Shown: positions 17,501-36,461, numbered from the stretch's first letter. The stretch is DNA of 64,000 nucleotides from a virus (IMGVR_UViG_3300037963_002171:1986-65985); one strand, 5' to 3'. Translations and numbers: made by a program. The notes: generated from the letters alone by a model not told the origin.

Positions 17501-20500
17501 TCCAATCAGGTCTTGCCATACCGTACATAGGATAAGCTCCTATTCTTTTTGAATAAAATTTAGTATAAATACCATAACCATATTCCACACTGTCTGCTGG
17601 GTCAAAATCTATAGCGTAATCTTTATCAGAATCTCCAAAAAAATCTCCAGCATATTGAGACATTTCAGAATCCCAATTTGTTGAACCAGAGCTTACTCTA
17701 GAAAAGTAATGTTTCCAAGAACCTATATCTAAAAATTCCACTTCTTCACCAGTGTTAACTTGCACACCTTCACCCATCAATAATGATGGTTGCAAATGAC
17801 AAGCAAAAAGGTCTATACTCCAAGGACCTTGAGTGTAGTCTGGATAAGACCCACTAGGCAAATATCTAGTACTAGCAGAACTGTTCCAATTTCCTCCTGA
17901 TAAGAATTTATTAAAGAAACCTATCCATGGTTCGTGATTGTTTGGTATATTTCCTGATGGGTCAGCTAACCTTGTGTTTCTTACATTTTGTTTTATGCAA
18001 TACCTAGATTCTACAATTTTTAATCTACCACCAGAAGTGCCTGGTAAAAAGAAATTATCATCACATGTTGTTTCTGGTGAATCTATTGTATAAACATTAG
18101 AAGCGTGCCATGTAGCATCTAAATTAATAGGAGATTGAGAGTTGTCGTATTGTGTAGTCATAAGATTAGGTGAAAAAACAAATGCTGGGTCTCCAGCACT
18201 AGTCTGAGGTGATGTAGCCCACGGCTGACCATAAGAAGTAGAGTTATAAGCTTGCTGTGTTCTTGTCCAAAAGGGAATAGGGTCATCACCAAATCTGTCA
18301 GCCATTCCAGTTCTATTAGCTCCATTCCACTCGTATTCTGTATTATTAAACTCATATATTGTATCTTCATTTACACTTGCATAGCTTACAGCCCTATTTA
18401 AAATACCAGATGTAATAATAGTTCTGTCATCTGAAGTTCTAGGAACTCTTACAATAGAGTATCCCCCCACTTTAGAAGTTGTATCACTAGATAGTTTTAC
18501 TTCAAAATATGGGTAAACTACACCAGCATATTGACCTTCTCCTGGTGACTGAGGATGCCATCCATAAGGTCCATTTCCATTCATGTCATCATAATCGTCA
18601 CTGTCTCCAGACGGATTTGGCCAATTACTAAAACCATTGTCAACAGAATGTCTACTTGTTTGGTAATACCAAGGCCAAGCTGCTTTAGCTGAAGAAATTG
18701 CGCTAGACGAATATTCAGGTTTAATATATTCTGTGCTATGTTCAGGCATTCTTATATCTCCTATTCTTTTAACAAACATAGGTTGCCCTTTTTTATCATA
18801 AAACAAAATACCAAATCTATATATTTCTCCTCTTCTATAACCTACATGGTTAGAATTATAAACTGGGTTAGCATAACTTGCATAATACCCTGTGCTATTT
18901 TTGTCTAAATTATAAAAAGGAGGTTTACATCCCGCAAAATCTCCAGAATTAATTAAATTCTCTTTATTGTCTAATTGAATAGGAGCTGCAGGGGATTCTG
19001 GTGTGGTATCTAACATTCTAAATGTTACCCTTACACCTTCAAATTGACCATTATCTAATGGTGTATTAAAATTATCACTTTCTGCTCCAAAAATACCTCT
19101 TTTAGCTGACCATTGCATATTTATATCTCCTTCTGAATTTACAGGTTGAACAGGTGCTCCATGAAAAGAGTCATAAAGACCAGCACTAGCCTCTCCAGCC
19201 ACTCCAGGACCCTTTATATATCTATAATAATCTATAGACCAATTTGGTCCTTCGGGATAATAGTATTTGCCATTATTTTGATTTTTTGGACTAGCTATAC
19301 CCACATTATCTCCATTAAAGGTTACTCCAGCATGAGAATATAAAAGGTCTTTAAATAAATGAGGATTGGCAACAGTGGAGTGTTTTTGGTTTTTACTATT
19401 ATATGACCTCACTTTAAAATTATCAGCAATTTCAACATTAGTACCTGTTAAATTTCCACAAAATAATCTATTATCTTTAATTCCCAATGCCTTACAAGAA
19501 TCCCAAGAAATATTATCAGTTCCAAATTCTGCACTTATTATTTCTATTCTAGAATCTTCACCACCACTATGAGTCCATTGTATTGTTCCTGTAGCTGGTA
19601 TAGGATATGTTGCAAAAACTTCAGCTGTACCAGGCGCTCCATTCACATAAGGAATGAATATCATTTCTACAGAATCAAATCCTAAATCTAGGTTTTCTAT
19701 TTTTCCAAAAATTGATTTATTGGTGTTGGTTCCAGGCGCACCTCCTTTTGTAAATGCAGCTTCTGTACCCTTTGAACTAACTGGAACACAAGCTGGGTTT
19801 GTAATAGGTGACATTCTAGAATATCTACCATCAGCTGTTTTATATCTAAAACAATATGAATAAGCTATAGAGTCTAATGCTCCGCCATCACCAAAACCAG
19901 TTACTTCTGGAATAGAAAGTTTAGATTTAACAAAAATATTAAAACTATCAGGGTCATTCTGTACGGAATAATATATAGATTGATTAGCCGCTACATTCAT
20001 GGTTCTTAAAGGTATATCACCATCTGTAAAATATATTCTTCTTACTTTTTCATTTTCTTCAGTACCTACTACCTTTACTCTTTTTTTATCAGAAAAACCC
20101 AAGTTTCCTTGATAAAATAATTCATAACCAACATCACCAGGATAAGACAGTGTTCCATCTTTTTTTTGAGCTGTTTTTATTACAAAGTCTGTTGGATAAC
20201 CATTAGCATCTGCTTGGTCATTCCACTTGCCTAAAAGAACCAAATAGTCTGAAAAACCATAATGGCCTAATATTTGCATTTTTTTTGCTTCAGTGAAACC
20301 CTGAGCATATGTTTCTTCCCAAGTTGTATTAACCTGAACTGCATAAGTGGAAGGTTGACCAGAAGCAATTAAAACTTCAGGTATAGTTATTTCTTCTGAA
20401 TCTGGAAGTTCTAACTCATTAAAATACTGTTCAGCAAGCTGACCAAAACCAGCAGCTGTCCAATAAAGAGCATCTGTCATCATATTGGTATTATGTATAG

Positions 20501-21821
20501 CACCCATAGTGGTCCAATTAATTGAATTAGTTGGCATACTAGAACTATATGTAAGTTCTAAAAAATCTATTGTAGCGTATTCATATGGTGAATAAGTGTC
20601 AACTAAATTAGCACCAAAAATATCTTCTCCAAATGGTCCTAAATCACCTTGACCATCTATTATATCATTTAACGTTTCAGATTCTATCGTTTTAAAAAAA
20701 ATATTTCCAAATGTGTAATCTATTTGTTCATTTAGTACATAATTTTCTGGATTATTTAAATTACCACCTTGAAACTCATAGTTCATGTTCATTTGATTAA
20801 GATACAGTCTTTCTTTAATGTACTCTACCCAATGTAAAAACAGTCCTTTACCATAAGTGGTTAACACAGTTCCTCCACCTGAAGAAGAATCTATAGAAGC
20901 AAGTAAAGTACCTGAAGCTAAAATTTCAAAACTAGAAACATATTCACTAGGTTCATTTACATTTGTAAAATTCCAATTAACTAAATTATTGGCTCCATTT
21001 GATGTTGCAATTTCAAAAATGTTAGTCACTTCTTCAACTAACTCTCCGTTAGAGTTTAATAAAGATATAGTTGATAATTCATTAAAAGCAGTAGAAATAT
21101 AACCACTCAACCAACTAGTGTTACTAGATTGCGATTGCCATACTTGTATATCTTCTGAGCTCATATTCACAACACCCCTATAAACACCTGAAACGCCACT
21201 TACAGATAAATCTACTTTAAAGGTCATTGAACCATAACCATTAATTTCATTAGGAAGAGTTGTTGTAAGAGTACTTACGTATGTCTCAAATTCAGATATT
21301 ATTTCTTCTGACGGAACCCAAGAGTTTACTGATGGGTTGCTTACTCCCAGTTGCGCTTGAATAAATTTAGGAAGATAAATAAATGTATTACCGAAATCAA
21401 CAGTACCTCCATTGCCATCATCTCCCCAATCATCTAACCATGCGTAGTTATAATAATACGCGCTTATATCCTCACCAGTACCAGCTTGTATGTTAAACAA
21501 ATTATTTGTAATACCATAGTTTATAATATCTTCACCTCCAAAAACATAATCATCTACTTCAAAGTATCCAGAAATGTCTGTAGCCCAATTAGAAATATTT
21601 GAAAGAATAGGTGTTGTAGTAACACTTTGAGTTCCTTGTGTTAAACCTAAAGCTTTTTTGTCGCTGTCATATGGTTGTGCAGATACATTACCACCCTCAT
21701 GAGAAACTAATCTAATATTCTTAGCATCTCTATAAGTATGGGGAGGCTGTAAAGAAGGGTCCATGTCCACCTTCATTCCCTTTAAAAAAGTATTTGGTTT
21801 TCCTTTTTTTCTTAAACTCAT
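14568..21821 (-). CDS. Tail muzzle / tail stabilization protein (P22 gp10-like), 2417 aa
   Basis: N-terminal FLKGMKVDMDP...YRDAKNIR, IYFTDG, KDNRLFCGN, YRRGEIYRFGILFYDKKG and GGDTF motifs typical of crAss-like muzzle proteins; follows the ring gene. Confidence 0.8.
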   Translation of the reverse strand: MSLRKKGKPNTFLKGMKVDMDPSLQPPHTYRDAKNIRLVSHEGGNVSAQPYDSDKKALGLTQGTQSVTTTPILSNISNWATDISGYFEVDDYVFGGEDIINYGITNNLFNIQAGTGEDISAYYYNYAWLDDWGDDGNGGTVDFGNTFIYLPKFIQAQLGVSNPSVNSWVPSEEIISEFETYVSTLTTTLPNEINGYGSMTFKVDLSVSGVSGVYRGVVNMSSEDIQVWQSQSSNTSWLSGYISTAFNELSTISLLNSNGELVEEVTNIFEIATSNGANNLVNWNFTNVNEPSEYVSSFEILASGTLLASIDSSSGGGTVLTTYGKGLFLHWVEYIKERLYLNQMNMNYEFQGGNLNNPENYVLNEQIDYTFGNIFFKTIESETLNDIIDGQGDLGPFGEDIFGANLVDTYSPYEYATIDFLELTYSSSMPTNSINWTTMGAIHNTNMMTDALYWTAAGFGQLAEQYFNELELPDSEEITIPEVLIASGQPSTYAVQVNTTWEETYAQGFTEAKKMQILGHYGFSDYLVLLGKWNDQADANGYPTDFVIKTAQKKDGTLSYPGDVGYELFYQGNLGFSDKKRVKVVGTEENEKVRRIYFTDGDIPLRTMNVAANQSIYYSVQNDPDSFNIFVKSKLSIPEVTGFGDGGALDSIAYSYCFRYKTADGRYSRMSPITNPACVPVSSKGTEAAFTKGGAPGTNTNKSIFGKIENLDLGFDSVEMIFIPYVNGAPGTAEVFATYPIPATGTIQWTHSGGEDSRIEIISAEFGTDNISWDSCKALGIKDNRLFCGNLTGTNVEIADNFKVRSYNSKNQKHSTVANPHLFKDLLYSHAGVTFNGDNVGIASPKNQNNGKYYYPEGPNWSIDYYRYIKGPGVAGEASAGLYDSFHGAPVQPVNSEGDINMQWSAKRGIFGAESDNFNTPLDNGQFEGVRVTFRMLDTTPESPAAPIQLDNKENLINSGDFAGCKPPFYNLDKNSTGYYASYANPVYNSNHVGYRRGEIYRFGILFYDKKGQPMFVKRIGDIRMPEHSTEYIKPEYSSSAISSAKAAWPWYYQTSRHSVDNGFSNWPNPSGDSDDYDDMNGNGPYGWHPQSPGEGQYAGVVYPYFEVKLSSDTTSKVGGYSIVRVPRTSDDRTIITSGILNRAVSYASVNEDTIYEFNNTEYEWNGANRTGMADRFGDDPIPFWTRTQQAYNSTSYGQPWATSPQTSAGDPAFVFSPNLMTTQYDNSQSPINLDATWHASNVYTIDSPETTCDDNFFLPGTSGGRLKIVESRYCIKQNVRNTRLADPSGNIPNNHEPWIGFFNKFLSGGNWNSSASTRYLPSGSYPDYTQGPWSIDLFACHLQPSLLMGEGVQVNTGEEVEFLDIGSWKHYFSRVSSGSTNWDSEMSQYAGDFFGDSDKDYAIDFDPADSVEYGYGIYTKFYSKRIGAYPMYGMARPDWIKRNISGTGQGMDIKQFGLAGAFEYPYAFISNNGYGSSFDATSYPSDVTSAETYLGTYEQGVRACNILPDVLRPQNGLNSDDGDFYRGEDIRRSDSTWPLNGYWYESNIQHMQIVSPGEEVDSGTLFSDRPYKNATMWHDFHKQNNNSDNPRAHNNPTDANYYKWTLGANTDTATDQVGNYSEENADYALGNRKIVLSLKHHGAMPITRHCIAKDNWKERVYLTFGNAAIGSNYPDPNWSQFSPEVTVASLTTGATANTLYGGNSVNAFNNNTFQSCGHFTPVNEESVGYVPGIGAFTRTGKNGHHVFGGDTFVCNYSVKKVHNPSDDSENFFDRTTFTGYTAPIETEVNLDLRYGTFLGSSTADISRYFEDDFGSITYNSSFNTENSILSFIAKPLDFVEVFEWPYTVSWSEPKFPGDYRDSFAVFTAGQFKDLDYSKGPITQLFLLQNELFALQSSGTCHLSVNPRIMIPSGEGKAITTITGTDAVLERYDYVSDSFGSQHIHGRAITPNSAYYYDDNACKFLKLGKSKSGGWSVVSLGDSLGMQSYFQSYNNKTIGDNPLSNTVVRHDASLSYDNNVKTWHSNYGSSDGAEIPGGIAIGYDIQYDEVLLTLYPHLEVPKTIVYNEKLDAFTSFISKRGAEYITYRNRMYTLYDNPEDESLNSLYLSNGYTDFSATDMTGLNLFSLQGTQESTATKYLNFGAEDFYIFANPTSEELLANNNINISQKSYKYPSDNIANLNNFVLKTNIMPYKEPVHIVGVINDEVVQPKVFDSFDVLINPEQDAYGHLYFRKFGFQGSANPNGIHEFDMTHVEDWQDSDGVPEFPYIILEGFSNSSPLYPAQNVWVSNEGVELNPTLPLPSFSGPYINDTVSSSSDYVNITPWYTYRDGVHNVPMRRMENGLTSDNSAENQFINVNGIGQMRENRVRGFYAIYSMVMGFNESTLDATFEVPDNDFRKNYTYNIFSVIPNYRYSKR

Positions 21822-21824
21822 TTG

Positions 21825-22484
21825 TTAAACATTAAGTAATCCATTTAAACTTTTAACTGGAACTAAAGTATTCCAGATTGCAGCTGCTTTTTTCATTTCT
21901 ATAGGAGAAGGCATATTGTCGTTTCCTCTAGCTTGAGCACAAAGTTGTGACCAATTTTGCTTTAAGTCCATATATATATATCTAGGAAGTTCTCCGTTAA
22001 AATAATCTCTTGATTTATATTTAAACATAATATAAGCAGATACAGCATCTTCATGATTATCTGCAATAGTAGGAAAACCTTCATCATCTGTATCTATAGC
22101 GTAATAAGCTATGTCTATAGATGAAATATCACTAGTAGAAATATTTATAGTATCTTCTGTTAAATAAAAAGTATTTTGTTTATCTACATCAGAAGGAAAA
22201 GATGCTGAACTTTGTGAAAAATAAGTGGAGCTAGAAGCATCACCTGTTTTCTTTATATCTATTAATTTTAAAAAATCAAAAGGTAATGAAGCTTGCTTGT
22301 TTACTATGTTTAGTGTTACACTTTTTTTTACAAAAGTTTTGTAAGAACCTATTTTTCTTTCAGCTTCAAAAGCCCATTCTACAAAATCATATAGGCTTCT
22401 AGAAGCATCAGTAACGTCTAAGTTTCTTATAACATTACCAACAACTCTTTTTACACTAACTCTTTTGCCAGACTGTCCATTCAT
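21825..22484 (-). CDS. Tail ring / tail tubular protein (P22 gp4-like)
   Basis: EWAFEAERKIG, LPFDF and IAYYAIDTDDEGFPTI motifs; crAss-like synteny. Confidence 0.75.
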   Translation of the reverse strand: MNGQSGKRVSVKRVVGNVIRNLDVTDASRSLYDFVEWAFEAERKIGSYKTFVKKSVTLNIVNKQASLPFDFLKLIDIKKTGDASSSTYFSQSSASFPSDVDKQNTFYLTEDTINISTSDISSIDIAYYAIDTDDEGFPTIADNHEDAVSAYIMFKYKSRDYFNGELPRYIYMDLKQNWSQLCAQARGNDNMPSPIEMKKAAAIWNTLVPVKSLNGLLNV

Positions 22485-22485: not shown

Positions 22486-22911
22486 TTAATATTCTTTTAC
22501 TTCTTTAATAACTTTTTTAAATTTAGACAAAGGCAAAACTTTACATTTTTTAAATTTAGATGGTCTTAACCAAACTAATTTATTATAGTAGTTTTCTAAA
22601 ATAGGAACTTTATATTTTACAACTTCTCCAGTTCTTTCACTTTCTGCAATATCTAACCTTATGTGAAAAGGTCTTTTGTTTTTGCATTTCTTTACATATA
22701 TAGTTCCAAATCTATGAGGCAATCTAGCCTTTTCTCTATTGCTAGCCACCTCATCTATCATAACATCAAAAAACTTACTTACAATACTTCTGTATTCTGT
22801 GTAAGAAAGTTGCCTATCTCTAATAGTTCCCTTTACTTTTATATTTTTTTTTATTTTACTAAATACATCTTTTAAAAAAACATATTTATCTTTAAATTTT
22901 CTTATATCCAC
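22486..22911 (-). CDS. IHF/HU-like DNA-binding protein of the crAss-like structural module
   Basis: RLPHRFGTIYVKK, basic; position between ring genes; GTG start. Confidence 0.65.
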   Translation of the reverse strand: MDIRKFKDKYVFLKDVFSKIKKNIKVKGTIRDRQLSYTEYRSIVSKFFDVMIDEVASNREKARLPHRFGTIYVKKCKNKRPFHIRLDIAESERTGEVVKYKVPILENYYNKLVWLRPSKFKKCKVLPLSKFKKVIKEVKEY

Positions 22912-23624
22912 TATGCTTTACTTTTACTGCTTTGTTGTTTTTGTTTTGGAGCAACTGCTACTTTTTTAGCATCATTTCTTGAGTTATTCATATTATCTGA
23001 ATCAGTTTTCAAATAAATAGAAAATTCTATAGCTAAAATATTTTTAATTAATATTGATACTAATTCATCTGGTATAGGATATTGTGCTCCAGCATTAAAT
23101 CCTTTTACCTTTTCTGGATTAGCAGCTATAAATGATACAAATACTGTTTTACCTGTTACTAACTCACCAGGATTGTTATATATATACATGATATTATCTC
23201 TACCATCTGTTCCCCCAATAGTAGATGGATTATAACTTATAGTTGCATAATATCTGTTATCTGCTGGAGCAAATCTTGACATTTCAAAAAATTCTTTTTC
23301 AGACTCATTTACTATAGGTAAATTAAATTGTTCTGAGGAAGGAATAGTAGAATCGTTTCTTAAAACCACATCTACTATACCTCTGTTTTTTGAAAAACCT
23401 ACTAAATTAGGTATTTGAATTGTTCCATCAGTTAAGTCTTTTGAAATAGTTTGAGTCATTTCTCTAGCAATTCGTTTGCCACCTTTACTATATTCAAATA
23501 TTAACTTAGACCTATGGTAATGTACCATAGCTTTTATTTGGCGAATAGATAATGTAGAATCTTCACCAGATATACCTCCCTCTACTATGTTTTTAATATT
23601 ATATGCTATTTCGTTTAATGTCAT
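22911..23624 (-). CDS. Tail ring protein (crAss gene 73-like)
   Basis: MTLNEIAYNI...SIRQIK, YPIP motif and C-terminal DNMNNSRND; synteny. Confidence 0.65.
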   Translation of the reverse strand: MTLNEIAYNIKNIVEGGISGEDSTLSIRQIKAMVHYHRSKLIFEYSKGGKRIAREMTQTISKDLTDGTIQIPNLVGFSKNRGIVDVVLRNDSTIPSSEQFNLPIVNESEKEFFEMSRFAPADNRYYATISYNPSTIGGTDGRDNIMYIYNNPGELVTGKTVFVSFIAANPEKVKGFNAGAQYPIPDELVSILIKNILAIEFSIYLKTDSDNMNNSRNDAKKVAVAPKQKQQSSKSKA

Positions 23625-23636
23625 ATTTATAATTTT

Positions 23637-23673
23637 AAAAAGACAAGGGGCAGGGCGTACCTAACCCCTCATC
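23637..23673 (-). terminator. Intrinsic terminator-like hairpin at the end of the capsid operon
   Basis: Minus strand GATGAGGGGT/GCCCCTTGTC stem followed by TTTTT. Confidence 0.6.
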
Positions 23674-23691
23674 ACAAAGCAGGGAGCAAAA

Positions 23692-24723
23692 TTATTTTCC
23701 CTTTAATTGTTGTACTTCGTTAACTCCAAACTTATAGGTTTCATCACCTATGTTTGCTAATATCTTTCTTGCAGCAATCATACAAACTTCTTCCCTTCCA
23801 TGTGAAGGTAAAAACATTATATCATCAACTGATGTTGGGTTGGCTATATAAACCATAATTACCCTTTTTGCGGTCCCTGAAGGTATGTAGGTTATATTGT
23901 AATTTGATAATTCTTCTCCTTCTTGATAAGCATAAGTGTCTGTTTCTGTTAAAGGAACATAATTACCTTGATTAGTTGGGCCAAAAAAAGGTGACACTTC
24001 TGTTTCATTTACAGGTGCTGGTCTTATCCAATATACATCATCTGTTTTTACAGCTTTATAGTTTTTTTCATCCGCAGAGTTAAAAGGGTCATCTTCTGAT
24101 TTTACAAAATTATCTACACTTAATATATCCACTTCTTGACCAGCTTTTACTGTAAAATTAGGAATACCGTCTCCAGTAAATGTATTTATAGTTCCATCTA
24201 AAGTTCCTGGATAACTACCATCTGCATCTAATTCTGCAGTACTTAATTCACCTCCTGCATAAGCACCTTCTACAACTCTTAAACTTAAAAGAGTTCCTAC
24301 ATTTAAATCTACCCTATCTGCTTCTTCTATTAAAGTTGGTTCATCTGTTGGTTTATATGGCCTAAATGAAACACCTAAAACACTATAGTCTATACTATTG
24401 TTTTGAAAAGAAACATCCATTCCAAAAGTATTTTTTTCAACCTCTATATTAATCCCAGAAACATCTTCTGAATTTGCAGCATTACTTAACGTTGTATCTC
24501 CTGTTGTAAGCGTGGGCATAGAAAAGGTTACAGAACGAACAAAACCTCCTAAATCGTCTCTAAACTCTTGACTAGTGGAATATACGGAAACTCTTTCTCT
24601 AATGTACTCGTTTAGAGCCAATTCAAGAAAGCCGTTTATTTCACCATTTGTTAACCAAGGAGAGTCAGACCTATCTACAATAAGCCTAACTCTACTCCTT
24701 GCTGTCAATGCATTGTTTATCAT
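23692..24723 (-). CDS. Tail ring protein (crAss gene 74-like)
   Basis: DRSDSPWLTNGEINGFLELA N-terminus and LPSHGREEVCMIAA C-terminus; synteny. Confidence 0.65.
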   Translation of the reverse strand: MINNALTARSRVRLIVDRSDSPWLTNGEINGFLELALNEYIRERVSVYSTSQEFRDDLGGFVRSVTFSMPTLTTGDTTLSNAANSEDVSGINIEVEKNTFGMDVSFQNNSIDYSVLGVSFRPYKPTDEPTLIEEADRVDLNVGTLLSLRVVEGAYAGGELSTAELDADGSYPGTLDGTINTFTGDGIPNFTVKAGQEVDILSVDNFVKSEDDPFNSADEKNYKAVKTDDVYWIRPAPVNETEVSPFFGPTNQGNYVPLTETDTYAYQEGEELSNYNITYIPSGTAKRVIMVYIANPTSVDDIMFLPSHGREEVCMIAARKILANIGDETYKFGVNEVQQLKGK

Positions 24724-25436
24724 TTGCTACTTTTTTTATTTTTTTTAGTAGTAGCTTCCTGCTTTTGTTCAACCAAATCCATTTCCACCTTACCATTACC
24801 ATTTAATTGGTTTTTAAGTAATGCAAAAATATCTTTATTATCTTTTAACCATTTTATTACTTGGTCTTCTGAAATACCAATTACTTGACTTCCATACTTA
24901 AATGTATCTTTATCCCAAACAATTACATTAGATTGTTGTGCTTCTAATATAAATGTTCTGTAATGTTTATCTTCATCAAACCAAACAGACATAAAATAGT
25001 CTGGATTTTCTGCAGCAATTTTTAAAACATGTGCTTTAAGAATATCATCTCTAGAATCTAAATTTAATCCCAACAATCTTCCTAACTCTCTTACTTCAGC
25101 CATGTTTAATTTAGCTGCTTCCATAACTGCATTAGCTGATGTCATAATTGCATTAGCTTCTGCCTCTTGTCTTACAATAGAATCATCTCTTAACCAAGAA
25201 CCATTAGTAACTAAAGGATGTCCTTTTAAGAATTCATCTACTAATAAGTGGTGTTCTTCCATAATGTTTAAAGTTATTACAGGTTGAGTGCTTGGAAAGC
25301 CTCTGTGAGCTACACCATTTATGTCTGTATATGTGTGCATCTTACCTGTCTTATCTTTATAATTACCAAAGAATACATAACTCATCTTTGTAGGTGCTTT
25401 ACTTCTGTAGTGCACCATATGTTTATTTTTGCTCAT
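24720..25436 (-). CDS. Conserved capsid-module protein (crAss gene 75-like)
   Basis: AAENPDYF...IGISEDQVIKWLKD; position downstream of the major capsid gene. Confidence 0.55.
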   Translation of the reverse strand: MSKNKHMVHYRSKAPTKMSYVFFGNYKDKTGKMHTYTDINGVAHRGFPSTQPVITLNIMEEHHLLVDEFLKGHPLVTNGSWLRDDSIVRQEAEANAIMTSANAVMEAAKLNMAEVRELGRLLGLNLDSRDDILKAHVLKIAAENPDYFMSVWFDEDKHYRTFILEAQQSNVIVWDKDTFKYGSQVIGISEDQVIKWLKDNKDIFALLKNQLNGNGKVEMDLVEQKQEATTKKNKKSSK

Positions 25437-25442
25437 AATTTG

Positions 25443-25592
25443 TTATTTTAATTTTTGTCCATGTTTGCTAGTCCACTTCAAACCTGGCCCGCTTTGTTTA
25501 ATTAATAGACCACACCCGCTCTTTCGAGTAGACTTCGAGTGTTCTTCCACTTTCCCAGTATCTGGGTTATATTTTAATATTGTCCTTGCCAT
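25443..25592 (-). CDS. Small basic protein (49 aa, MARTILKYNPDTGKVEE...)
   Basis: Hand-translated ATG..TAA ORF filling an intergenic gap, with an A-rich leader. Confidence 0.55.
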   Translation of the reverse strand: MARTILKYNPDTGKVEEHSKSTRKSGCGLLIKQSGPGLKWTSKHGQKLK

Positions 25593-25600
25593 AATAAAAA

Positions 25601-25669
25601 ATACTTTACCCCCTCTGAATATTCATAGACCTTTAAGACTTTATAAAAATCTAAGAGGGGGATAAGTAT
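25601..25669 (-). other. Long imperfect intergenic hairpin (terminator or RNase III-type stem)
   Basis: ATACTT-TACCCCCTCT ... AGAGGGGG-AT-AAGTAT inverted repeat. Confidence 0.5.
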
Positions 25670-25679
25670 AAATTATATA

Positions 25680-26141
25680 CTAGTTATCAAATGTGATAGC
25701 AGCATAATTTTGTGCAAAAGCTTTTACATACCAGCTTGTTCCATCACAAACCAATTCTACTCTATCTCCTTTTAAAGAAGCAGAAGCAAATTGAATTTTA
25801 GTATTAGAAGAAGCGGCAACATCACCATCAGTAGCAGCATTTTCACCCTGAGTAGAACCATATATAGCTCCAACAAAATCTTCAGCGGCATCACCTTGAA
25901 CTATAGTTGACGCAGCTGTATCATAGTCAGCAGTCAATATAACAACAAAATTTAAACCCTCTGCAGCTCTTGGCAGGGTAACATCTACACCATTAGCGCC
26001 TAGTAAAATAACTTTACCAGAATCCGTGTCTTCCAAAGTAGTATCAGCCGAAACTGTTTTAGTTTGGATAAACGAACCATTTAAGCTTTTTAAGACATCA
26101 TCTGAATCAGCTGAACGTCTTACTGTAAATACATCTTTCAT
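25680..26141 (-). CDS. Putative head fibre/decoration protein
   Basis: DSGKVILL...VTLP...GLNF...GDRVELVCDGTSWYV is a common virion fibre domain pattern; lies in the capsid operon. Confidence 0.55.
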   Translation of the reverse strand: MKDVFTVRRSADSDDVLKSLNGSFIQTKTVSADTTLEDTDSGKVILLGANGVDVTLPRAAEGLNFVVILTADYDTAASTIVQGDAAEDFVGAIYGSTQGENAATDGDVAASSNTKIQFASASLKGDRVELVCDGTSWYVKAFAQNYAAITFDN

Positions 26142-26185
26142 TTTTTAATAATTTTTAAAGTTAACACTTAGTTTCCTATTTTTAA

Positions 26186-26220
26186 ATGATTAGAGGAGGG
26201 CTAAGTTCCCCCCTCGTCAC
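26186..26220 (-). other. Intergenic GC-rich hairpin
   Basis: Minus strand GAGGGGGG-AACTTAG-CCCTCCTC with outer GTGA/TCAT pairing. Confidence 0.5.
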
Positions 26221-26230
26221 ATTGATTTTA

Positions 26231-26545
26231 TTATGCTACGTATGAAATTTCACATTGAGTTACTTTATCTAAAGCAGCTACAACGTCTATAACGCCAGCT
26301 CTAGAATTAGCAATTAATTTGCAAATTTGTTCTAGCACAATTTCTTCGTTTGTAGCATTTGTTGTTAAAGTTGCTACCGCTACCGCATCACCATCTTCAG
26401 TTGTTGCTGTTTGGCTAGCTGCTTTAAAAGTTAAAGCAACCGCTTGGTCAGCTACATCTACAGATAATAATCCACTTGCTGGAAACAAACTACTTTCTGT
26501 AGTGCTTGCTGTATCTTCGAAGAATAAATATTTTTCTTTTGCCAT
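26231..26545 (-). CDS. Small capsid-operon protein, paralog family A
   Basis: KYLFF...FPAS...LTF...D...VLEQI pattern shared with neighbours. Confidence 0.7.
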   Translation of the reverse strand: MAKEKYLFFEDTASTTESSLFPASGLLSVDVADQAVALTFKAASQTATTEDGDAVAVATLTTNATNEEIVLEQICKLIANSRAGVIDVVAALDKVTQCEISYVA

Positions 26546-26567
26546 TTTATTTAAATTTTAAGGATTA

Positions 26568-26885
26568 TTAATTAGCTGCTGGTGTAATTGAAGTCACGCC
26601 AGTGATTTCAGAAGTAGCATATTTATTATCAACTGCATCAGCTAATTTTAAAAATGCACCAGCATTATAATTAGCAAACACTTCGCCTATAGCAATCATA
26701 GCTTTTTTACCATTATCGCCAGCTCCATATGTTAATTTTACAACATCAACACCGTCTGTACCAACAGCACCTCTAAAGTGCAAATCAATTTCATCAGGGT
26801 CGTTATATCTAGCTTCTACAAATGATTCTACTGGCCAAGCATTGGCATCATCATCTGAAGCTCTTACATATACAAATTTTTTCAT
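26568..26885 (-). CDS. Small capsid-operon protein, paralog family A
   Basis: KFVYVR...AWPV...LHF...DVVKL...AMIAI...LKLAD. Confidence 0.7.
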   Translation of the reverse strand: MKKFVYVRASDDDANAWPVESFVEARYNDPDEIDLHFRGAVGTDGVDVVKLTYGAGDNGKKAMIAIGEVFANYNAGAFLKLADAVDNKYATSEITGVTSITPAAN

Positions 26886-26951
26886 TTTTTATAATTTTAA
26901 AGTTAAGGGTAAGAGGAAATTTTTTCCTGTCACACATATTAAGTTTAATTA

Positions 26952-26984
26952 CGTGATGTTTAAAACCGCCATCACATTACGGTT
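26952..26984 (-). other. Compact H-type RNA pseudoknot (intergenic)
   Basis: mRNA AACCGU-AA-UGUGAUG-GCGGUU-UUAAA-CAUCACG; stem 1 is 6 bp and stem 2 is 7 bp. Confidence 0.6.
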
Positions 26985-27006
26985 GTATTTATTAAGCACC
27001 ATTATA

Positions 27007-27312
27007 TTAATCGTGCGTCAATGAGTTAACGTTAACTAAATCTGGATGCATAAATCTTCCTATAGTAACATCTGCTAGCTCAATAAAAGAACTAGAATGT
27101 CTTTGAGCATCAACAATAGCTTTCATAACTTCTTTATGTTTTCCTGTATTAATAGTAAATCTAGCAAGAGCTAATCCTCCATCATCACCTATAAATTGAA
27201 TTCTTAAACTAGTAGCACTAAATAAATGTATAGAACGAATAGAATGATATGGTATAGCTAAAGCTGTATCTGTATCATCTGCAGCACTTCTTGCATATAT
27301 AAATTTTTTCAT
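27007..27312 (-). CDS. Small capsid-operon protein, paralog family A
   Basis: KFIYAR...AIP...IQF...TGKHKEVMKAI...IELAD. Confidence 0.7.
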   Translation of the reverse strand: MKKFIYARSAADDTDTALAIPYHSIRSIHLFSATSLRIQFIGDDGGLALARFTINTGKHKEVMKAIVDAQRHSSSFIELADVTIGRFMHPDLVNVNSLTHD

Positions 27313-27337
27313 TTTTTAAGTTTTAAATATTAATACC

Positions 27338-27673
27338 CTATTCAGTTGTAGATGTAACAGATTGAATTCCACTATGAACATAATCCTGTGCATCATCATC
27401 AGCTATTGGAATAAATAAAGCTCTACTAGTACGACCTGCTTCTACTATAGCTCTTATTACATCTTTAGATGTTCCTGTAGTTATTTCTAAATCTACATTA
27501 GCTACGTCGTCACCAGTCTCATCTTCTACAGATTCTGCCTCTTTAGGCTCTATACTAATTAAGAGAGAAGTTGCATCTGTTAAAATAAAAGAACGTATTT
27601 TGTCTACAGGAAATGCCATTGTATTAGTAGCATTTTTTCTTACATAAAAAAATTTTATAGGTTTTGCACTCAT
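27338..27673 (-). CDS. Small capsid-operon protein, paralog family A
   Basis: KFFYVR...AFPV...TGTSKDVIRAI...IPIAD. Confidence 0.7.
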   Translation of the reverse strand: MSAKPIKFFYVRKNATNTMAFPVDKIRSFILTDATSLLISIEPKEAESVEDETGDDVANVDLEITTGTSKDVIRAIVEAGRTSRALFIPIADDDAQDYVHSGIQSVTSTTE

Positions 27674-27693
27674 TTTATTGTTTTTAAAGTTAA

Positions 27694-27729
27694 GATGGGG
27701 GAGGGGAGATTGAACTCCCCCGCGCCATC
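27694..27729 (-). other. GC-rich hairpin downstream of the major capsid gene
   Basis: Minus strand GATGG-CGC-GGGGGAG-TTCAAT-CTCCCCT-CCC-CCATC; no long U-tract. Confidence 0.55.
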
Positions 27730-27737
27730 AATTAAAT

Positions 27738-29183
27738 TTACGAATTAGATAATATACCACAAGATAATGGATTTCTAAGAATAATACCAGATTCTGAAAG
27801 AATTTGACATTCAAAGAAGTCATCACCATTAGCAGCCATCATTGAGTTATAGTCGTAAGGATTAACCATACCAGGTACGTATTTTTTAACAAAACTTCTG
27901 TTAAAACCTTCAGCACCTTTAGCTATTAACTCTACATTACTAACTCCATTTTGCATACCCATGTCTACAAATACCATTTTACCTGATTCATTTGAAGTAT
28001 CAAATGTAGATGAAATAGAGTTGTGTAGATTGTCATCATCAAACACTGGGCAATATGCTAATATCATTTTGTTACCAAGAATATTATACTCAGTAAAGTT
28101 AGCACCTAACGCAACATCAGCTCCGCCTTTACCAGCAAATACTGGAGTACCAGAACCTAAAGTAACTAATAAGTCTTTCATAGCTCTGTGGAAGTCAATT
28201 CTTCCTTGTGTTCCTGTAAATACTGTCCAAACATTTCCTTCAGCATTTAATGCATTTTTAGAAAGTGTACCGATAAAGTTAACGATATCCTCTTCTGTTA
28301 ATGCACCAGCAGTATAAGTAGCTTGGTTAGCACCATCAATCTGAGCTAATAGACCATCACCCATAATTGGAAGACCTGAAGTAGCAGTACCTCGGTCACC
28401 TGGGAAGTCAGCAGCTCCTGTAGTAGCTGTAGTAAGAGTAGTTAAAGAATGCTTACCATACCATCTTTGACACTCTAGCTCATACATAAACTGGTCAGTC
28501 ATTTGTTGCTCTTTTGTAAAATACCATAATCGGTGTCCATTAGACTCAATCCAAGTAACATCAGTTAAGTCAGAACCCATAATTTTTGTTTTTTTACGAG
28601 ATAGAGTTAACCAGTTCTTGTAAGTATCTGGGTAAGCATAGTTTTGTCCTACCTCAGAAGCTAACGAACCTTGATTAAACGCACTACCAATACAACCTAC
28701 AACATCTCCAGCAACTGAATTAGTTGCAGTATCTGTCATTGCATCAATAGCTCTTAATGTAATAGTATTAGTTGCATCAGAAGATGTTACTGTTGGAACA
28801 CTTGTTACCATTGCAGTTGCACCATCTTTGAATCGCACTATGTCATTTACGTTTAGATTATCACCATAAAAAGCGCTTCCTGTTCCTTGGTGTTTTACAA
28901 CCATTGATACAGTATCTCCCGCATTATAAGTTGCGTTAGTGATAGATGCGTTCAATACAGCTGGTTTTCTGTATCGTCCCATCATTTTCCATTCAAAAGC
29001 GTAGTCGCCTATAATTTTTTCTGCAGCATTACGACCTGCAGCTTCTAACAAATATGTTAGAGAGAAACGTGGATATTGTGAGATAATTTTTTTTCCTATC
29101 TCTGGATACTTTAATAAATTGGTTACCAACGCCGTTTCATCCGTTGTGTCTTTTCCATATGTACCCGTATATACATTTGCCAT
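27738..29183 (-). CDS. Major capsid protein (crAss-like)
   Basis: 481 aa; YAFEWKMMG, NWLTLSRK, GDGLLAQI and VFTGTQG motifs; follows portal and scaffold-like genes. Confidence 0.85.
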   Translation of the reverse strand: MANVYTGTYGKDTTDETALVTNLLKYPEIGKKIISQYPRFSLTYLLEAAGRNAAEKIIGDYAFEWKMMGRYRKPAVLNASITNATYNAGDTVSMVVKHQGTGSAFYGDNLNVNDIVRFKDGATAMVTSVPTVTSSDATNTITLRAIDAMTDTATNSVAGDVVGCIGSAFNQGSLASEVGQNYAYPDTYKNWLTLSRKKTKIMGSDLTDVTWIESNGHRLWYFTKEQQMTDQFMYELECQRWYGKHSLTTLTTATTGAADFPGDRGTATSGLPIMGDGLLAQIDGANQATYTAGALTEEDIVNFIGTLSKNALNAEGNVWTVFTGTQGRIDFHRAMKDLLVTLGSGTPVFAGKGGADVALGANFTEYNILGNKMILAYCPVFDDDNLHNSISSTFDTSNESGKMVFVDMGMQNGVSNVELIAKGAEGFNRSFVKKYVPGMVNPYDYNSMMAANGDDFFECQILSESGIILRNPLSCGILSNS

Positions 29184-29256
29184 TTTTAAATAATTTTAAT
29201 TGTTATAAATAAATTAATACACAATAACAAATAAAATAGCGTTGCCTTTTTATTTA

Positions 29257-30279
29257 TTACTTCATAAATTCGACAGGGTCAAAACCATTTTTCATTTTAG
29301 TTTCAACATGTCTACTTTTTCGGCTTAAGTTAGGATTTGTAATTTTATCAATCACGGAGGCTTTGCCTCTTTCCACACCTTGGCCAGATAACATCTTAAA
29401 GATTTTGTCTTTATATTTCCATAAGAAAGCAGCATCTGCTACATTGGCAGCGCTTCCATATAGTTCTTTAGAAAAATCACCAGATGTTATATAATTATAT
29501 AGTTCCCTTTTTTCTGTTTTTCCAACTTTACCACCAAAAAAATCTTCTTTAGTTTTTATATATGTTTGTAAAGCTTTTCTGTTTTCTATATTTTGTTTTT
29601 CAGTTTCTTTCTGTAACCTTTCCTCTTCTTGCTTTATTGTTTTTCTTTCGTTAGCAATATAGTTTTGAAGATTCTTTCTAATTAGTAAAGCTTCTTTTTT
29701 CAAAAGACCTGAATCATGCATTCTATCTACAGTATCTTTTATTTCTTCTTTTTCTAAACCTGAAGCTTCTAAGTCAGAAGCAACTAATTGTGCGTCATTC
29801 ATTTTAAGAAATGCCTGTAAATTTTGTATAGTATCATTAACAGGAGATGGTTCACTTATAGCCTTTTTAACAGCTTCTTTAAAAGTTTTTTCATCTTTAG
29901 CCTCTACACCTATTTCAGATGCTAGAGTTTGCCAATCATACACTTCCTCTTTTACATTTTCACTCTTTTTAGTTTCTTCTTTAGAAACAGGTGTTGAGTC
30001 CCAATCTTCATCCTCTTCAATTTTAGATTCTTGTTTTTCTTCTGAATCTAATTCTACCTTATCCCAAGAGAATGAATCATCATCAGATTCTTCTTCATTG
30101 GTAGTTTCTTCTTGTTCCTCAACCTCTTCTTTTTGAGGCTCTTCTTTACTATTAGTTTCTTCTCCAACAAAAGCCTTAGGGTCAAATGCTGGAGTAGTTT
30201 CTGTTTGTTCTTTAGTTTCTACAGTTTCCTGCTCAACTTTGTCTATTAGGTCTTCACCTGATGTTTGTTCTTTGCTCAT
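29257..30279 (-). CDS. Acidic scaffold-like protein (crAss gene 77-like)
   Basis: Very Glu/Asp-rich N-terminus and coiled coil; between portal and major capsid genes. Confidence 0.65.
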   Translation of the reverse strand: MSKEQTSGEDLIDKVEQETVETKEQTETTPAFDPKAFVGEETNSKEEPQKEEVEEQEETTNEEESDDDSFSWDKVELDSEEKQESKIEEDEDWDSTPVSKEETKKSENVKEEVYDWQTLASEIGVEAKDEKTFKEAVKKAISEPSPVNDTIQNLQAFLKMNDAQLVASDLEASGLEKEEIKDTVDRMHDSGLLKKEALLIRKNLQNYIANERKTIKQEEERLQKETEKQNIENRKALQTYIKTKEDFFGGKVGKTEKRELYNYITSGDFSKELYGSAANVADAAFLWKYKDKIFKMLSGQGVERGKASVIDKITNPNLSRKSRHVETKMKNGFDPVEFMK

Positions 30280-30307
30280 AATTTAAAATTTTGCTCTTTG
30301 CTTTGTA

Positions 30308-30315
30308 CAAAGATA
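30308..30315 (-). promoter_or_regulatory. Bacteroidota -7 promoter element (TATCTTTG)
   Basis: Matches TAnnTTTG; intergenic, upstream of the scaffold/capsid operon. Confidence 0.65.
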
Positions 30316-30319: not shown

Positions 30320-32605
30320 TTATTTTTTACTTACTTTTTTAACCTCTTTTTCGCTTTTATTTTTCTTTTCTGTTTCTTTAGAATGTTTTAATTTTTCAGT
30401 TTCTATTTTATCTTTTAAACCAGATTGCATAGCTTCTTTTTGCAATGTAGCTTTTATTTTATCACTACTAACATTAGCTTCCAAGTCTGCTTGTAAGTTA
30501 GCAATTTCTACTTTAGCTTTTCCAGCTTCTATAGCTGCATTTACTTTTCCTTGGTTTTCTAATTCTTTAAGATTAAGCTCATGTTGTCTTTGTGCATCAG
30601 CCTGTTGAGCTTGCGCTTGTAATTGTTGCTGTTGCATTTCTTGTGCTTGTTGAGATTGTTCTTGTATTTCTTTAATACCATGTTCTAAAATATGTTCAGC
30701 TTCTGTAAGAGTTTCTGCTTTTAATATTTTAATTACACTTAGAAGGTCTATACTACCACTTTGAAGAGCTGCTTGTGATAATTGCGTTACAGCTTGTTTT
30801 ACTGCATCTTCTTTACCACCCTCACTAATATATATACCATAATCATTTAAAGATACATCAGGAAATACTGTTAACATTTTATATCCACCATCTCCCAATA
30901 TATATCCAGCTTTTTTTCCTCCTGCCCAAGATATTTTCATAAGATTGCAAACTTTTTCTATTGCTCTTTTCTTTACTTCTGAATGTTGGAAAAACCAATT
31001 TTCTGTTACAAGGTTAGATTGTACAACTGTTCTTTGCACATTACCAACTGCTTCATATTGAGAAACAGCACCTTCTCTTTGTGGGGATATACCACACACT
31101 TGTCCAGCTGTTTGTTCCAACATTAATTTTAAATTAATTAATTGTTGTACAGAATTAGATAATGTAAAGTCCACTTGTTGAAATTGATTAAATCTAGCAG
31201 TATCAGCTCCTTCATCTCTAGAATTAATAGGTATTATACCATCATTCTTAATGTGATAAAGAACTGTTTGCATATCCATACCTATATTTGACGGCATTTG
31301 TGAAACGTCATAAACAACAGCTTTTCCTCCAGCTCTAGATAATGTTAACTCTATATGATACATAACCACATTGTATAACATTTGAATATGTTTAAGAACA
31401 TCCACTATACTTGTCACTCTACCTGAAGATAGATTATGAACACATCCTGTGTAAGATAAATCAGTTTTTCCAGCATCATCTACAGAACGAACCTGATTAG
31501 GTCTTCTTCTGCAGTTTACTAATATTTGACCACCTATTTTTGTACCCTCCCAAATATCATCTACATATTTAGTTTCTACAATTTCACCTTTTCTTGGTTT
31601 GTAGTTGTCTGCTACTATTTTTCTAAAAGGGTTGCTTTCATCATATTTATTAGGAGAAACTTTTACTTTTATTGCTCTAATAGATTTCCATTCTCCATGA
31701 ATTAATCTAACCTTTATACCTGTAGAAGTATCGTATTGAACCCAATCTAAATTAGAATTATAATGAGCTAATTCGTCACCAGACGACACATGTCTCATCT
31801 TTTCTAACTCCATAACATCCTCTTTTGTTAGCTCATCTCCATACTCATCTAATATCTCATTAATACCTAACCATCTTTGTTCTACCACCCATTGAGCATT
31901 GTCTAAGTAATCACTTTCTATAGACATATCAAAAGCTATATTTCTTGGGTCTATTCTTCTTATTTGTGGGTCTCCATTTAATATATCTACTTTATAAAAA
32001 ACTTTACCTGTTACAAGAAAATCTCTAAAACCCCCTCTAAATAAATCTTTCCAACTATATCTTTCTTTTAAATAATGCAATCCATCCTCTACAGCTTCTT
32101 CTACAGCCTCTTTATAAGTGTATCGCATAAACTCTTCTATATTATCTGGTATTTCCATTCCTGTTAAGTTTTCTGCAACATCCATACCCATACTTTGATT
32201 TATTTCTTTTTTTACATCAGAAAGTATAGATTCAGCTATAAGTGATATTTTAACATCTTCTTTTCTTTGGACAGCATCTTTATTTACAGAACTCACTTTG
32301 GTTTCTAGTGGTCTACGTAATTCTTCGCTAGTAAGAAGGTCTATTTTAGGAGCTATTATATTAAAGTTAGTCATACGAGCAGGAAATGGTGTTCCGTACT
32401 GGTCAGTAACGTGCTCATAATCTTTTGGGTCAAAATGACCATGATATGCTTGATAATTTCTTATATCTTTATATCTATCATTAATATAAAGACTATTGTT
32501 GTGTTGTGCAATGTATGGAGCCATAGCGTCCAAATTTTGTTCACACCAATTTTTATCTTTCTCCTTATCTGTAAGAAGTTGTCTAGGAAAACTAGTATAC
32601 GGCAT
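30320..32605 (-). CDS. Portal protein (crAss-like)
   Basis: 761 aa; FPRQ...KDKNW, NFNIIAPKIDLL, WEGTKIG, GISPQREG and Q-rich C-terminal barrel. Confidence 0.88.
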   Translation of the reverse strand: MPYTSFPRQLLTDKEKDKNWCEQNLDAMAPYIAQHNNSLYINDRYKDIRNYQAYHGHFDPKDYEHVTDQYGTPFPARMTNFNIIAPKIDLLTSEELRRPLETKVSSVNKDAVQRKEDVKISLIAESILSDVKKEINQSMGMDVAENLTGMEIPDNIEEFMRYTYKEAVEEAVEDGLHYLKERYSWKDLFRGGFRDFLVTGKVFYKVDILNGDPQIRRIDPRNIAFDMSIESDYLDNAQWVVEQRWLGINEILDEYGDELTKEDVMELEKMRHVSSGDELAHYNSNLDWVQYDTSTGIKVRLIHGEWKSIRAIKVKVSPNKYDESNPFRKIVADNYKPRKGEIVETKYVDDIWEGTKIGGQILVNCRRRPNQVRSVDDAGKTDLSYTGCVHNLSSGRVTSIVDVLKHIQMLYNVVMYHIELTLSRAGGKAVVYDVSQMPSNIGMDMQTVLYHIKNDGIIPINSRDEGADTARFNQFQQVDFTLSNSVQQLINLKLMLEQTAGQVCGISPQREGAVSQYEAVGNVQRTVVQSNLVTENWFFQHSEVKKRAIEKVCNLMKISWAGGKKAGYILGDGGYKMLTVFPDVSLNDYGIYISEGGKEDAVKQAVTQLSQAALQSGSIDLLSVIKILKAETLTEAEHILEHGIKEIQEQSQQAQEMQQQQLQAQAQQADAQRQHELNLKELENQGKVNAAIEAGKAKVEIANLQADLEANVSSDKIKATLQKEAMQSGLKDKIETEKLKHSKETEKKNKSEKEVKKVSKK

Positions 32606-36426: not shown

Positions 36427-36430
36427 TTGT

Positions 36431-36438
36431 CAAAGATA
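36431..36438 (-). promoter_or_regulatory. Bacteroidota -7 promoter element (TATCTTTG)
   Basis: 4 nt upstream of the ATG at 36426. Confidence 0.55.
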
Positions 36439-36461
36439 TGAAAAATTAAGGACATAATATA

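Follow-up and report, generated by a model that had tools for sequence, protein, structure and literature searches.

A conserved motif and terminator-like hairpin at the end of the capsid unit of a marine crAss-like phage, with complementarity to the leader of the putative scaffold gene

The capsid unit and the repeat that brackets it

The window analyzed here, a 64,000-nt stretch of DNA from a virus (IMGVR_UViG_3300037963_002171:1986-65985), carries portal, capsid, ring, and muzzle genes recognized by Pfam or PHROG (Table 1). The 340-aa gene in the scaffold position had no PHROG or Pfam match, and the 343-aa protein at the other end of the unit had no match in Pfam, PHROG, or the PDB sequences. 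Its look-alikes in a protein atlas were the SU10_adaptor and CrAss_Ring_3_4 clusters (score 0.93), which are a lead only. The first-pass annotation had called this the ring gene; the proteins that Pfam does recognize as rings 2 and 1 are encoded by the next two genes downstream. Genomes with 80-88% identity in their capsid proteins share just 27-34% identity in the 343-aa protein. No match to the 7.3-kb unit was found when its DNA was compared with 50,697 phage records, and a PDB sequence search with a 238-aa protein, whose leader is considered below, gave none either.

Table 1. Features of the capsid unit and its surroundings, in window coordinates
Feature	Position	Strand	Evidence or remark
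Portal	30320-32605		PF16510 and phrog_6547 matches
-7 box TATCTTTG, Bacteroidota sigma-A type	30308..30315	-	sequence read; upstream of scaffold-position gene
Perfect 12-nt palindrome CTTTGTACAAAG	30301..30312	-	spans promoter box and first bases of 5' arm
5' arm, purine-rich leader box	30287..30306	-	ends 7 nt before ATG at 30279
340-aa gene, putative scaffold by position only	29257..30279	-	flanked by the portal and major capsid genes
Major capsid protein, crassvirus type	27738..29183	-	PF23898 Crass_capsid, E 6.9e-33; phrog_11589
343-aa gene, adaptor- or ring-like (lead only)	23692..24723	-	stop codon overlaps 3' arm
3' arm	23674..23693	-	core TTGCTCCCTGCTT of conserved single-stranded motif at 23677-23689
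Terminator-like hairpin and TTTTT	23637..23673 (hairpin 23673-23642, TTTTT 23641-23637)	-	MFE fold, 13 pairs
Tail ring protein 2	22911..23624	-	PF25702, E 5.3e-14; first gene past motif and hairpin
Ring protein 1	21825-22484		PF24228, E 2.7e-31
Muzzle protein	14568-21821		PF25731, E 1.5e-119

The 20-nt inverted repeat that the first-pass annotation had reported at the two ends of the unit is present exactly where it had been placed. On the minus strand, 30306-30287 reads ACAAAGCAAAGAGCAAAATT and 23693-23674 reads AATTTTGCTCCCTGCTTTGT, and the two arms pair at 18 of 20 positions as 8 bp, two A.C mismatches, and 10 bp. At the DNA level a single sequence is thus present twice, in opposite orientations, each copy with two direct TTGCT/TGCTT units, and a search of the window at up to 3 mismatches matched only these two sites. 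The arms lie 6.6 kb and about ten genes apart. Three terminator-like hairpins are found inside the operon, so few transcripts may carry both arms.

As a bare inverted repeat, the pair is not above chance. The window contained 29 pairs matching at 18 or more of 20 positions, compared to 20, 28, 19, and 19 in four first-order Markov sequences, and the shuffle test that had been proposed for intergenic DNA (38 segments, 4262 nt) gave two observed pairs, with at least one pair in 18% of 300 dinucleotide shuffles. The comparison of about 130 related contigs gave a different picture from these bare-repeat statistics.

The 3' motif and its covarying hairpin

The 3' arm overlaps the TAA stop codon of the 343-aa gene (23694-23692) from the codon's second base on. 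It contains the core of a motif, a T-run followed by GCTCCCT(T)GCTT, that lies between the stop codon and a covarying hairpin and whose invariant columns among 32 distinct relatives are TGCTCCCT. Motif and hairpin occur once in every relative covering the site, across a capsid identity span of 51-100%, whereas identity in the flanking genes is just about 30%. In the window and in the G004 and G005 genomes, one copy of the motif with a hairpin was found in each. The first-pass annotation had made its proposal depend on conservation in relatives, and for this arm such conservation reaches down to 51% capsid identity. Because the 3' arm is conserved well outside the clade with the long complement described below, pairing with the scaffold leader cannot, on this pattern of conservation, be the sole reason for its retention.

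The terminator-like hairpin stands directly after the arm, as had been claimed. The minimum free energy of the 50 nt past the motif was -18.4 kcal/mol, and RNAalifold on the 32 sequences returned seven consensus hairpin pairs, four of them with compensatory changes on both sides, with the motif left unpaired. The G.U pairs in the stem suggest selection at the level of the sense RNA. A G+C-rich stem-loop followed by a U-run is what is expected of an intrinsic terminator, although the U-run is weak in several close relatives. A conserved unpaired seed with the terminator of its own mRNA behind it is the arrangement of a 3'-UTR-derived sRNA.

Several other identities for the motif were assessed and rejected. 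The stop codon and the T-run together make up a TAnnTTTG box (TAATTTTG) in just 6 of 27 distinct upstream sequences, so that no conserved internal sigma-A promoter was found there. A mini-ORF was rejected on the grounds that start codons and frames vary from clade to clade, with a frame shift caused by an inserted T. The element resembles nut sites and rrn boxA-boxB in having a conserved linear motif beside a hairpin and before a very long downstream gene block. However, the motif is unlike the flavobacterial rrn leader/spacer box (GTTCATTGAYATATTGAA), which is repeated in a Christiangramia rRNA operon as GTTCATTGA(T/C)ATATTGAA, flavobacteria serving here as a proxy for the phage's host, and the phage hairpin is itself terminator-like with a U-run after it. 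For an attP-like identity to host genes, no coherent host match was found. Rfam gave no match at the gathering score in the whole window and chance-level matches alone (E 4-9) in 23450-23850, and a tRNA/tmRNA search found none.

A scan of viral contigs with a 15-nt pattern returned 116 matches, 28 of them in relatives and all of those in the same context, while the other 88 were unrelated. In genome contigs, for which the pattern is too short, scattered context-free matches in many phyla were treated as chance; none had the hairpin after it, and none was close to rRNA or tRNA genes. G007 has a further match to the core, antisense within a 430-aa ORF and without a hairpin, that was treated in the same way. 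Flavobacterium phage FpV4, the closest cultured relative (capsid identity 22%), has a near-leaderless gene in the scaffold position and a plain terminator without the motif, so the motif-hairpin element is specific to this marine crAss-like phage family.

The scaffold leader and its complementarity to the motif

Upstream of the scaffold-position gene, the box TATCTTTG has the TAnnTTTG form of a Bacteroidota sigma-A promoter, and it is kept in most distinct leaders, with a few near-matches such as TATTACCTTTG. Such boxes are reported at -12 to -5 in Flavobacterium psychrophilum (PMC9723704), from which the start is predicted at 30303. This spacing fits two other boxes in the window, where an ATG exactly 5 nt past the G would give leaderless mRNAs. 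A start downstream of the repeat, which had been named as counting against the first-pass proposal, is thus predicted for a small part of it: the start falls 3 nt inside the 5' arm, leaving ACA (30306-30304) outside the transcript from this promoter and the remaining 17 of 20 nt (30303-30287) within it. The palindrome CTTTGTACAAAG is retained in most close relatives and is broken by an extra A in L015 and L017.

Within the clade of at least 80% capsid identity, 7 of the 14 distinct leader haplotypes shared one and the same 18-nt core of the 5' arm; six others carried 1-2 substitutions and one (L328/L329) was divergent. The arm is far more conserved in this clade than the leader stretch just 3' of it. 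Among the substitutions in the arm, C to T is the most frequent; it occurs in four close-clade haplotypes and in the divergent L328/L329 leader and keeps a G.U pair. One further close-clade substitution lies in the internal loop, and another, a G to A change shared by L012 and L335, disrupts a pair.

The full complement of 15-18 bp in the scaffold leader is limited to the window's clade, and every other clade has a shorter one of 5-11 contiguous bp in a different register. In L329, a 5' helix of 9-10 bp now includes the CC that is mismatched in the window, and the 3' helix is lost; L340 has 10-11 bp (GAGCAAAAAA/TTTTTTGCTC), G004 has 9 + 4 bp extending to the start codon, and L331 has just 5 Watson-Crick bp (7 with G.U). 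Predicted pairing was compared at 20 representative loci, which come from clades of shared ancestry and so amount to far fewer than 20 independent tests. In all 20, the scaffold leader paired better with the motif than its own mononucleotide shuffles did (p <= 0.05), and the true motif beat a reversed-motif decoy of identical composition at that leader. The scaffold leader ranked first to third among the 6-26 leaders of each locus, with only 0-2 of the other 5-25 leaders pairing as well. The signal in the distant clades comes mostly from one inherited AAGCAA box opposite an inherited TTGCTT.

When the whole window was scanned, the scaffold leader was the best gene-strand partner of the motif (-23.2 kcal/mol versus a 0.1% quantile of -19.0). 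The scaffold initiation region was in the top handful in the G004 genome (-25.3 versus -23.0), and in G005 the scaffold leader was outside the ten best partners. Covariation, by which the first-pass annotation had suggested its stem be checked, is present in the hairpin, and the leader-motif complement recurs. However, no clean compensatory double change was found within the predicted transcript among the relatives compared; the single C-G to A-U change (window versus L329) falls at predicted position -2 in the window. Taken at the sequence level, these comparisons support constraint on both arms and some leader-motif complementarity in every clade examined.

Candidate functions and alternative readings

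The reading that we favor, and hold tentatively, is that a regulatory RNA motif at the 3' end may pair with the translation-initiation region of the scaffold gene, in cis or in trans. The 3' arm would then be a piece of a conserved cis-RNA element ending the scaffold-to-adaptor transcription unit, consisting of a single-stranded pyrimidine-rich U-run plus GCUCCCU(U)GCUU with an intrinsic-terminator hairpin directly after it. Its partner would be the purine-rich box in the scaffold leader, which could offer 15-18 complementary nt in the window's clade and 5-11 nt, opposite other parts of the motif, in the other clades. Contact would be made 8-27 nt upstream of the start codon, either in cis on full-length transcripts or, more plausibly, in trans by a hairpin-protected 3' fragment. 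Such pairing would reduce ribosome access or create a substrate for a double-strand RNase, and would exert feedback on scaffold synthesis while late transcripts accumulate. Silencing of scaffold translation, one of the outcomes suggested by the first-pass annotation, agrees with the recurrent complementarity and the constraint on the arms; the transcription of both partners as proposed, their pairing in vivo, and the direction of the effect are what we infer.

Bacteroidota largely do without Shine-Dalgarno sequences, and the motif's proposed target is an A-rich box that precedes the ATG. In the monocistronic icaR mRNA of Staphylococcus aureus, a UCCCCUG motif of the 3' UTR is reported to pair with the initiation region of its own mRNA, at the Shine-Dalgarno sequence (PMC3868564). 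The phage unit is similar in that a short C-rich 3' motif (GCUCCCUG here) is complementary to the 5' initiation region of the same unit (18/20 in the window, with complementarity in 20/20 loci), and the proposed outcome is alike, with blocked initiation and a double-stranded RNase substrate. It differs in that the phage partners are separated by 6.6 kb and about ten genes, and the phage case is known from sequence. In Bacteroides thetaiotaomicron, UTR-derived sRNA candidates have been reported, and the seed of GibS pairs at initiation regions (PMC7366714). The phage element shares with these a conserved unstructured seed with the parental mRNA's terminator hairpin directly after it, complementarity to initiation regions, and the same type of host phylum (sigma-A TAnnTTTG promoters); it differs in being phage-encoded, with its best target in its own operon, and in resting here on genome sequence.

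A real possibility, though one that we are inclined to doubt, is that the two arms have independent functions and that the long complement is a by-product. The motif would work with its hairpin on the spot, perhaps as a site for protein binding or termination control at the boundary to the ring and muzzle genes, and the leader box would serve translation or stability in strongly expressed genes. Because both arms are built from reiterated AAGCA/TGCTT units, an 18/20 match could then arise in one clade. This would account for the conservation of the motif in clades with just 5-9 complementary leader bases, for a bare repeat within chance, and for the lack of a compensatory double change in the predicted transcript. 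AAAGCAA(G)-type boxes also stand ahead of the 238-aa gene in distant clades and of ring protein 2 in some close relatives; since the 238-aa leader has the same box, the box could act as an independent translation signal. A by-product is harder to reconcile with the advantage of the true motif over its decoy in 20/20 loci, with complementarity that persists despite register shifts between clades (L329, L340, G004), and with the scaffold leader being the motif's best same-strand partner in the whole window. Among the local roles considered, none was confirmed, the motif being no sigma-A promoter, flavobacterial boxA, Rfam family, or consistent mini-ORF.

Post-early gene regulation in crAss-like phages is almost unknown, and the titles and abstract openings of the literature surveyed mention no late-operon RNA element or 5'-3' complementarity for these phages. 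Should the pairing with the scaffold leader be real, 3'-UTR-based control, so far a matter of a few bacterial mRNAs, would reach a polycistronic unit of a virus, and the motif plus hairpin would be a simple sequence marker of the neck/tail boundary in this uncultured family. The complementarity may let the phage tune the production of its scaffold protein. If the pairing is not real, a conserved single-copy motif still calls for explanation. A wider proposal, which we consider unlikely as a whole, is that this marine family encodes a regulatory RNA derived from the 3' end, in which a conserved pyrimidine seed is joined to the head/neck unit's terminator hairpin. Its partners would be boxes of the AAAGCAA type, present in the scaffold leader and, for some clades, also in those of the 238-aa and ring-2 genes, and the resulting RNA feedback loop would set the stoichiometry of capsid-assembly proteins. 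Such an RNA, if real, would be the first riboregulator described among crassvirus-like phages, and the phylum concerned is one that lacks Hfq.

In the processing stems around rRNA genes and at phage RNase III sites, the duplex is longer and unbroken, and compensatory changes preserve it. The first-pass annotation had proposed that the full 6.6-kb transcript closes into such a 5'-3' stem, processed by RNase III or stabilizing the mRNA as in rRNA operons, and the likeness is that complementary sequences bracket a long transcript. This now seems improbable: the 15-18 complementary bases that flank the unit in the window's clade (duplex -20.8 to -23.2 kcal/mol, by the stretch folded) shrink to 5-11 contiguous pairs outside it, a modest length for a stable long-range stem that must span 6.6 kb of translated RNA, and the duplex is interrupted by a 2x2 internal loop, would be 3 bp shorter given the predicted start, encloses terminator-like hairpins, and lacks rRNA-like compensatory covariation, even if icaR offers a precedent for a 5'-3' UTR duplex as an RNase III substrate (PMC3868564).

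Very doubtful, too, is a DNA-level site at which a phage or host protein (such as a repressor, roadblock, or looping factor) recognizes about 18 bp with two TTGCT half-sites, in opposite orientations at the start (+1 to +18) and end of the unit: on DNA the arms are indeed one sequence in inverted orientation, with two direct units each, and the 5' copy overlaps the predicted start as an operator typically does, yet distant-clade leaders keep at most one half-site, the frequent C to T change alters the DNA site while keeping an RNA G.U pair, the G.U pairs of the adjoining hairpin point to selection on the sense-strand RNA, and no candidate regulator was identified.

Intrinsic terminators normally have no invariant motif of 13-20 nt upstream. 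The phage element resembles them in its G+C-rich covarying stem followed by a T-run, and differs in carrying such a motif. It was noted that the T-run is poor in L002, L005, L010, and L014, where an outer stem pairs GCTTT of the motif with AAAGC of the next leader.

Gene order, lineage and the inverted repeat

The window takes in positions 1986-65985 of its source viral record, which is 65,985 bp long. The record is classed as linear and without end repeats, unlike that of a relative (G007, the source of locus L015), which carries 113-bp direct terminal repeats. Because the closest cultured phages, of the FpV4 type infecting Flavobacterium, reach only 22% capsid identity, we class the window's phage as an uncultured marine crAss-like lineage. 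All of the sequencing runs listed for it were marine or seawater metagenomes.

Features of the capsid operon and its flanks in the window
Feature	Coordinates	Strand	Assignment
Portal	30320-32605	minus	PF16510; phrog_6547
5' arm, leader of scaffold-position gene	30306-30287	minus	
340-aa scaffold-position gene	29257-30279	minus	by position
Major capsid protein, crassvirus-type	27738-29183	minus	PF23898
Several small genes and 238-aa gene, between major capsid protein and 343-aa gene		minus	
343-aa gene	23692-24723	minus	
3' arm, with motif	23693-23674	minus	
Terminator-like hairpin	23673-23642	minus	
Tail ring protein 2	22911-23624	minus	PF25702
Ring protein 1	21825-22484	minus	PF24228
Muzzle protein, 2417 aa	14568-21821	minus	PF25731

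A giant ORF of >2749 aa (1-8247, minus strand) runs off the window start; together with the muzzle protein it makes the late genes downstream of the 3' arm a very long block read in one direction. The 243-nt "intergenic" stretch at 25437-25679 (minus strand) contains a hairpin with a T-run and then an apparent ORF, about 48 codons long with ATGGCAAGG at its start, which was also found in relatives such as locus L013 and is probably an unannotated small gene.

The first-pass annotation had described a 20-nt inverted repeat bracketing the capsid operon, its arms 6.6 kb apart. Both 20-mers were present as described; 18 of their 20 positions pair, in helices of 8 and 10 bp separated by two A.C mismatches. 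The 3' arm starts within the TAA that ends the 343-aa gene and is followed by a 13-pair hairpin and then TTTTT. Against random and shuffled sequence the bare repeat is unremarkable. The whole window held 29 non-overlapping pairs of at least 18/20 versus 19-28 in four Markov-1 random sequences, and in the suggested shuffle test of intergenic DNA (4262 nt; 2 such pairs) 18% of 300 dinucleotide shuffles yielded at least one; the low expectation of 0.04 is valid only for a 20-mer chosen beforehand. Intergenic segments share only one further 18/20 inverted repeat (50609-50628 and 61099-61118), which is nearly pure A+T.

A motif and terminator hairpin after the 343-aa gene

Relatives were gathered by capsid protein, giving 60 IMG/VR loci and 69 metagenome loci (many contigs common to both) with capsid identities of 51% to 100%. 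In every relative covering the site, down to 51% identity, the stop of the 343-aa homologue was followed by a T-run, the motif GCTCCCT(T)GCTT(T/C) and a stable hairpin. TGCTCCCT was invariant across 32 aligned distinct sequences, and TTTGCTCCCTGCTTT was kept in 11/11 distinct 3' elements of the clade with at least 80% capsid identity. The consensus fold left the motif unpaired and showed compensatory changes at 4/7 hairpin pairs. Motif and hairpin occurred together once each in the window and in two relatives' genomes (G004 and G005), and the exact core was single in 4/5 near-complete relatives; the extra match in G007 was rejected as a second element, being antisense inside a gene and without a hairpin. 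Among 116 exact-pattern matches in IMG/VR contigs, the 28 in relatives all lay in the element's context and 88 were unrelated.

Several identities were rejected for the motif. It matched no Rfam family, was rejected as a conserved sigma-A promoter because it formed a box with the stop codon in only 6/27 variants, gave no consistent small ORF, the reading frames varying between clades, was unlike the flavobacterial rrn boxA-type repeat GTTCATTGAYATATTGAA, had no host homologue pointing to an attachment site, and was absent from FpV4. A search of titles and abstract openings found no description of such an element, which at that level appears previously undescribed.

It was noted that the 343-aa protein is 27-34% and ring 2 36-49% identical where the capsid is 80-88% identical; the 238-aa proteins of these genomes, like the capsid, are 80-88% identical. 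The invariant motif lies exactly where these two hypervariable genes adjoin (window 22911-24723; loci L002-L046), and may for this reason serve as a marker of a recombination boundary as well. In five close relatives (L005, L014, L002, L010 and L108) no T-run follows the hairpin; in its place the ring-2 leader has a sequence of (T)AAAGCA or GCAG type, and this pairs with the motif's CTGCTTT as an outer stem around the hairpin.

Complementarity between the motif and the scaffold leader

The clade with at least 80% capsid identity contained 14 distinct scaffold leaders, far more variable 3' of the arm than within it. An identical 18-nt core was found in 7/14, one or two core substitutions in 6/14 (a C-to-T change that still allows a G.U pair, an A-to-T change in the internal loop and a pair-breaking G-to-A change), and a divergent leader in 1/14 (L328/L329). 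Pairing in further clades is in registers that differ from the window's. At L329 (capsid 80%), AAAAAGTAGG lies opposite CCTGCTTTTT with 9-10 pairs, taking in the CC mismatched in the window, and the 3' helix is gone. At L340 (capsid 67%), GAGCAAAAAA lies opposite TTTTTTGCTC with 10-11 pairs and without the 5' helix, and in G004 AAAGCAAGG plus GCAT is paired, adjoining and entering the start codon. Leaders in distant clades were short, nearly always with an AAGCAA-type box beside the ATG that is complementary to the motif.

The leader-motif duplex exceeded mononucleotide leader shuffles (p <= 0.05) in 20/20 representative loci, which share ancestry and are not 20 independent tests, and just 0-2 of 5-25 other leaders per locus matched or beat the scaffold leader. 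As the main rival, a real possibility, we consider two conserved elements with separate functions, their complementarity incidental to a repetitive AAGCA/TGCTT make-up; the true motif outscored a reversed decoy of identical composition in 20/20 loci. In genome-wide partner scans the scaffold leader ranked first on the gene strand of the window, among the top few in G004, and outside the top ten in G005.

Predicted transcription start and possible modes of action

TATCTTTG at 30315-30308 fits a Bacteroidota sigma-A box, which PMC9723704 places at -12 to -5 in F. psychrophilum; applied here, this placement predicts a scaffold transcript start at 30303. At two other boxes (36427-36461 and 37409-37456) the ATG lies exactly 5 nt past the G, a spacing that fits the placement. 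TAnnTTTG boxes 4-7 nt ahead of an ATG occur at these sites and at 46314-46385, which implies that mRNAs of this phage can be leaderless or nearly so. The first-pass annotation had staked the stem on a start not downstream of the repeat. The predicted start falls inside the 5' arm, so transcripts begun there would lack its first three bases and keep 5 + 10 pairs; no terminator was found between the portal and scaffold-position genes, and read-through RNA could therefore still include the whole arm. Between the arms the sole double change (C-G in the window versus A-U in L329) falls at predicted -2 in the window.

We tentatively favour a model in which the motif pairs with the scaffold leader, since the architecture is that of 3'-UTR regulatory elements: a conserved unpaired seed, a covarying terminator hairpin and complementarity to an initiation region. 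Precedents are icaR and, in Bacteroides, UTR-derived sRNA candidates and seed pairing to initiation regions. Under the favoured pairing, a hairpin-protected 3' fragment carrying the motif would act in trans on the leader; we think a translated mRNA closing over 6.6 kb less probable than this. Because the operon has internal terminator-like hairpins, both arms would be found together on few molecules. The mechanism proposed earlier is partly supported. Its rRNA-like processing stem, taken literally, is improbable, the long complement being absent in distant clades; a DNA-level operator pair is equally so. The RNA behaviour of both arms is our reading of sequence throughout, and the more solid result is the family-wide, single-copy motif-plus-terminator element with recurrent complementarity to the scaffold leader.

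At L340 (11950-12048) the motif takes the variant form TTTTTTTTGCTCTCTGCTCCCTGG, and beyond the terminator the ring-2 ATG is preceded at 5 nt by a TATCTTTG box, so ring 2 there would have its own leaderless promoter. L340 and L341 are two capsid-gene copies on one 98,490-bp metagenome contig, about 1.5x the usual family genome length and possibly a concatemer or assembly wrap-around.
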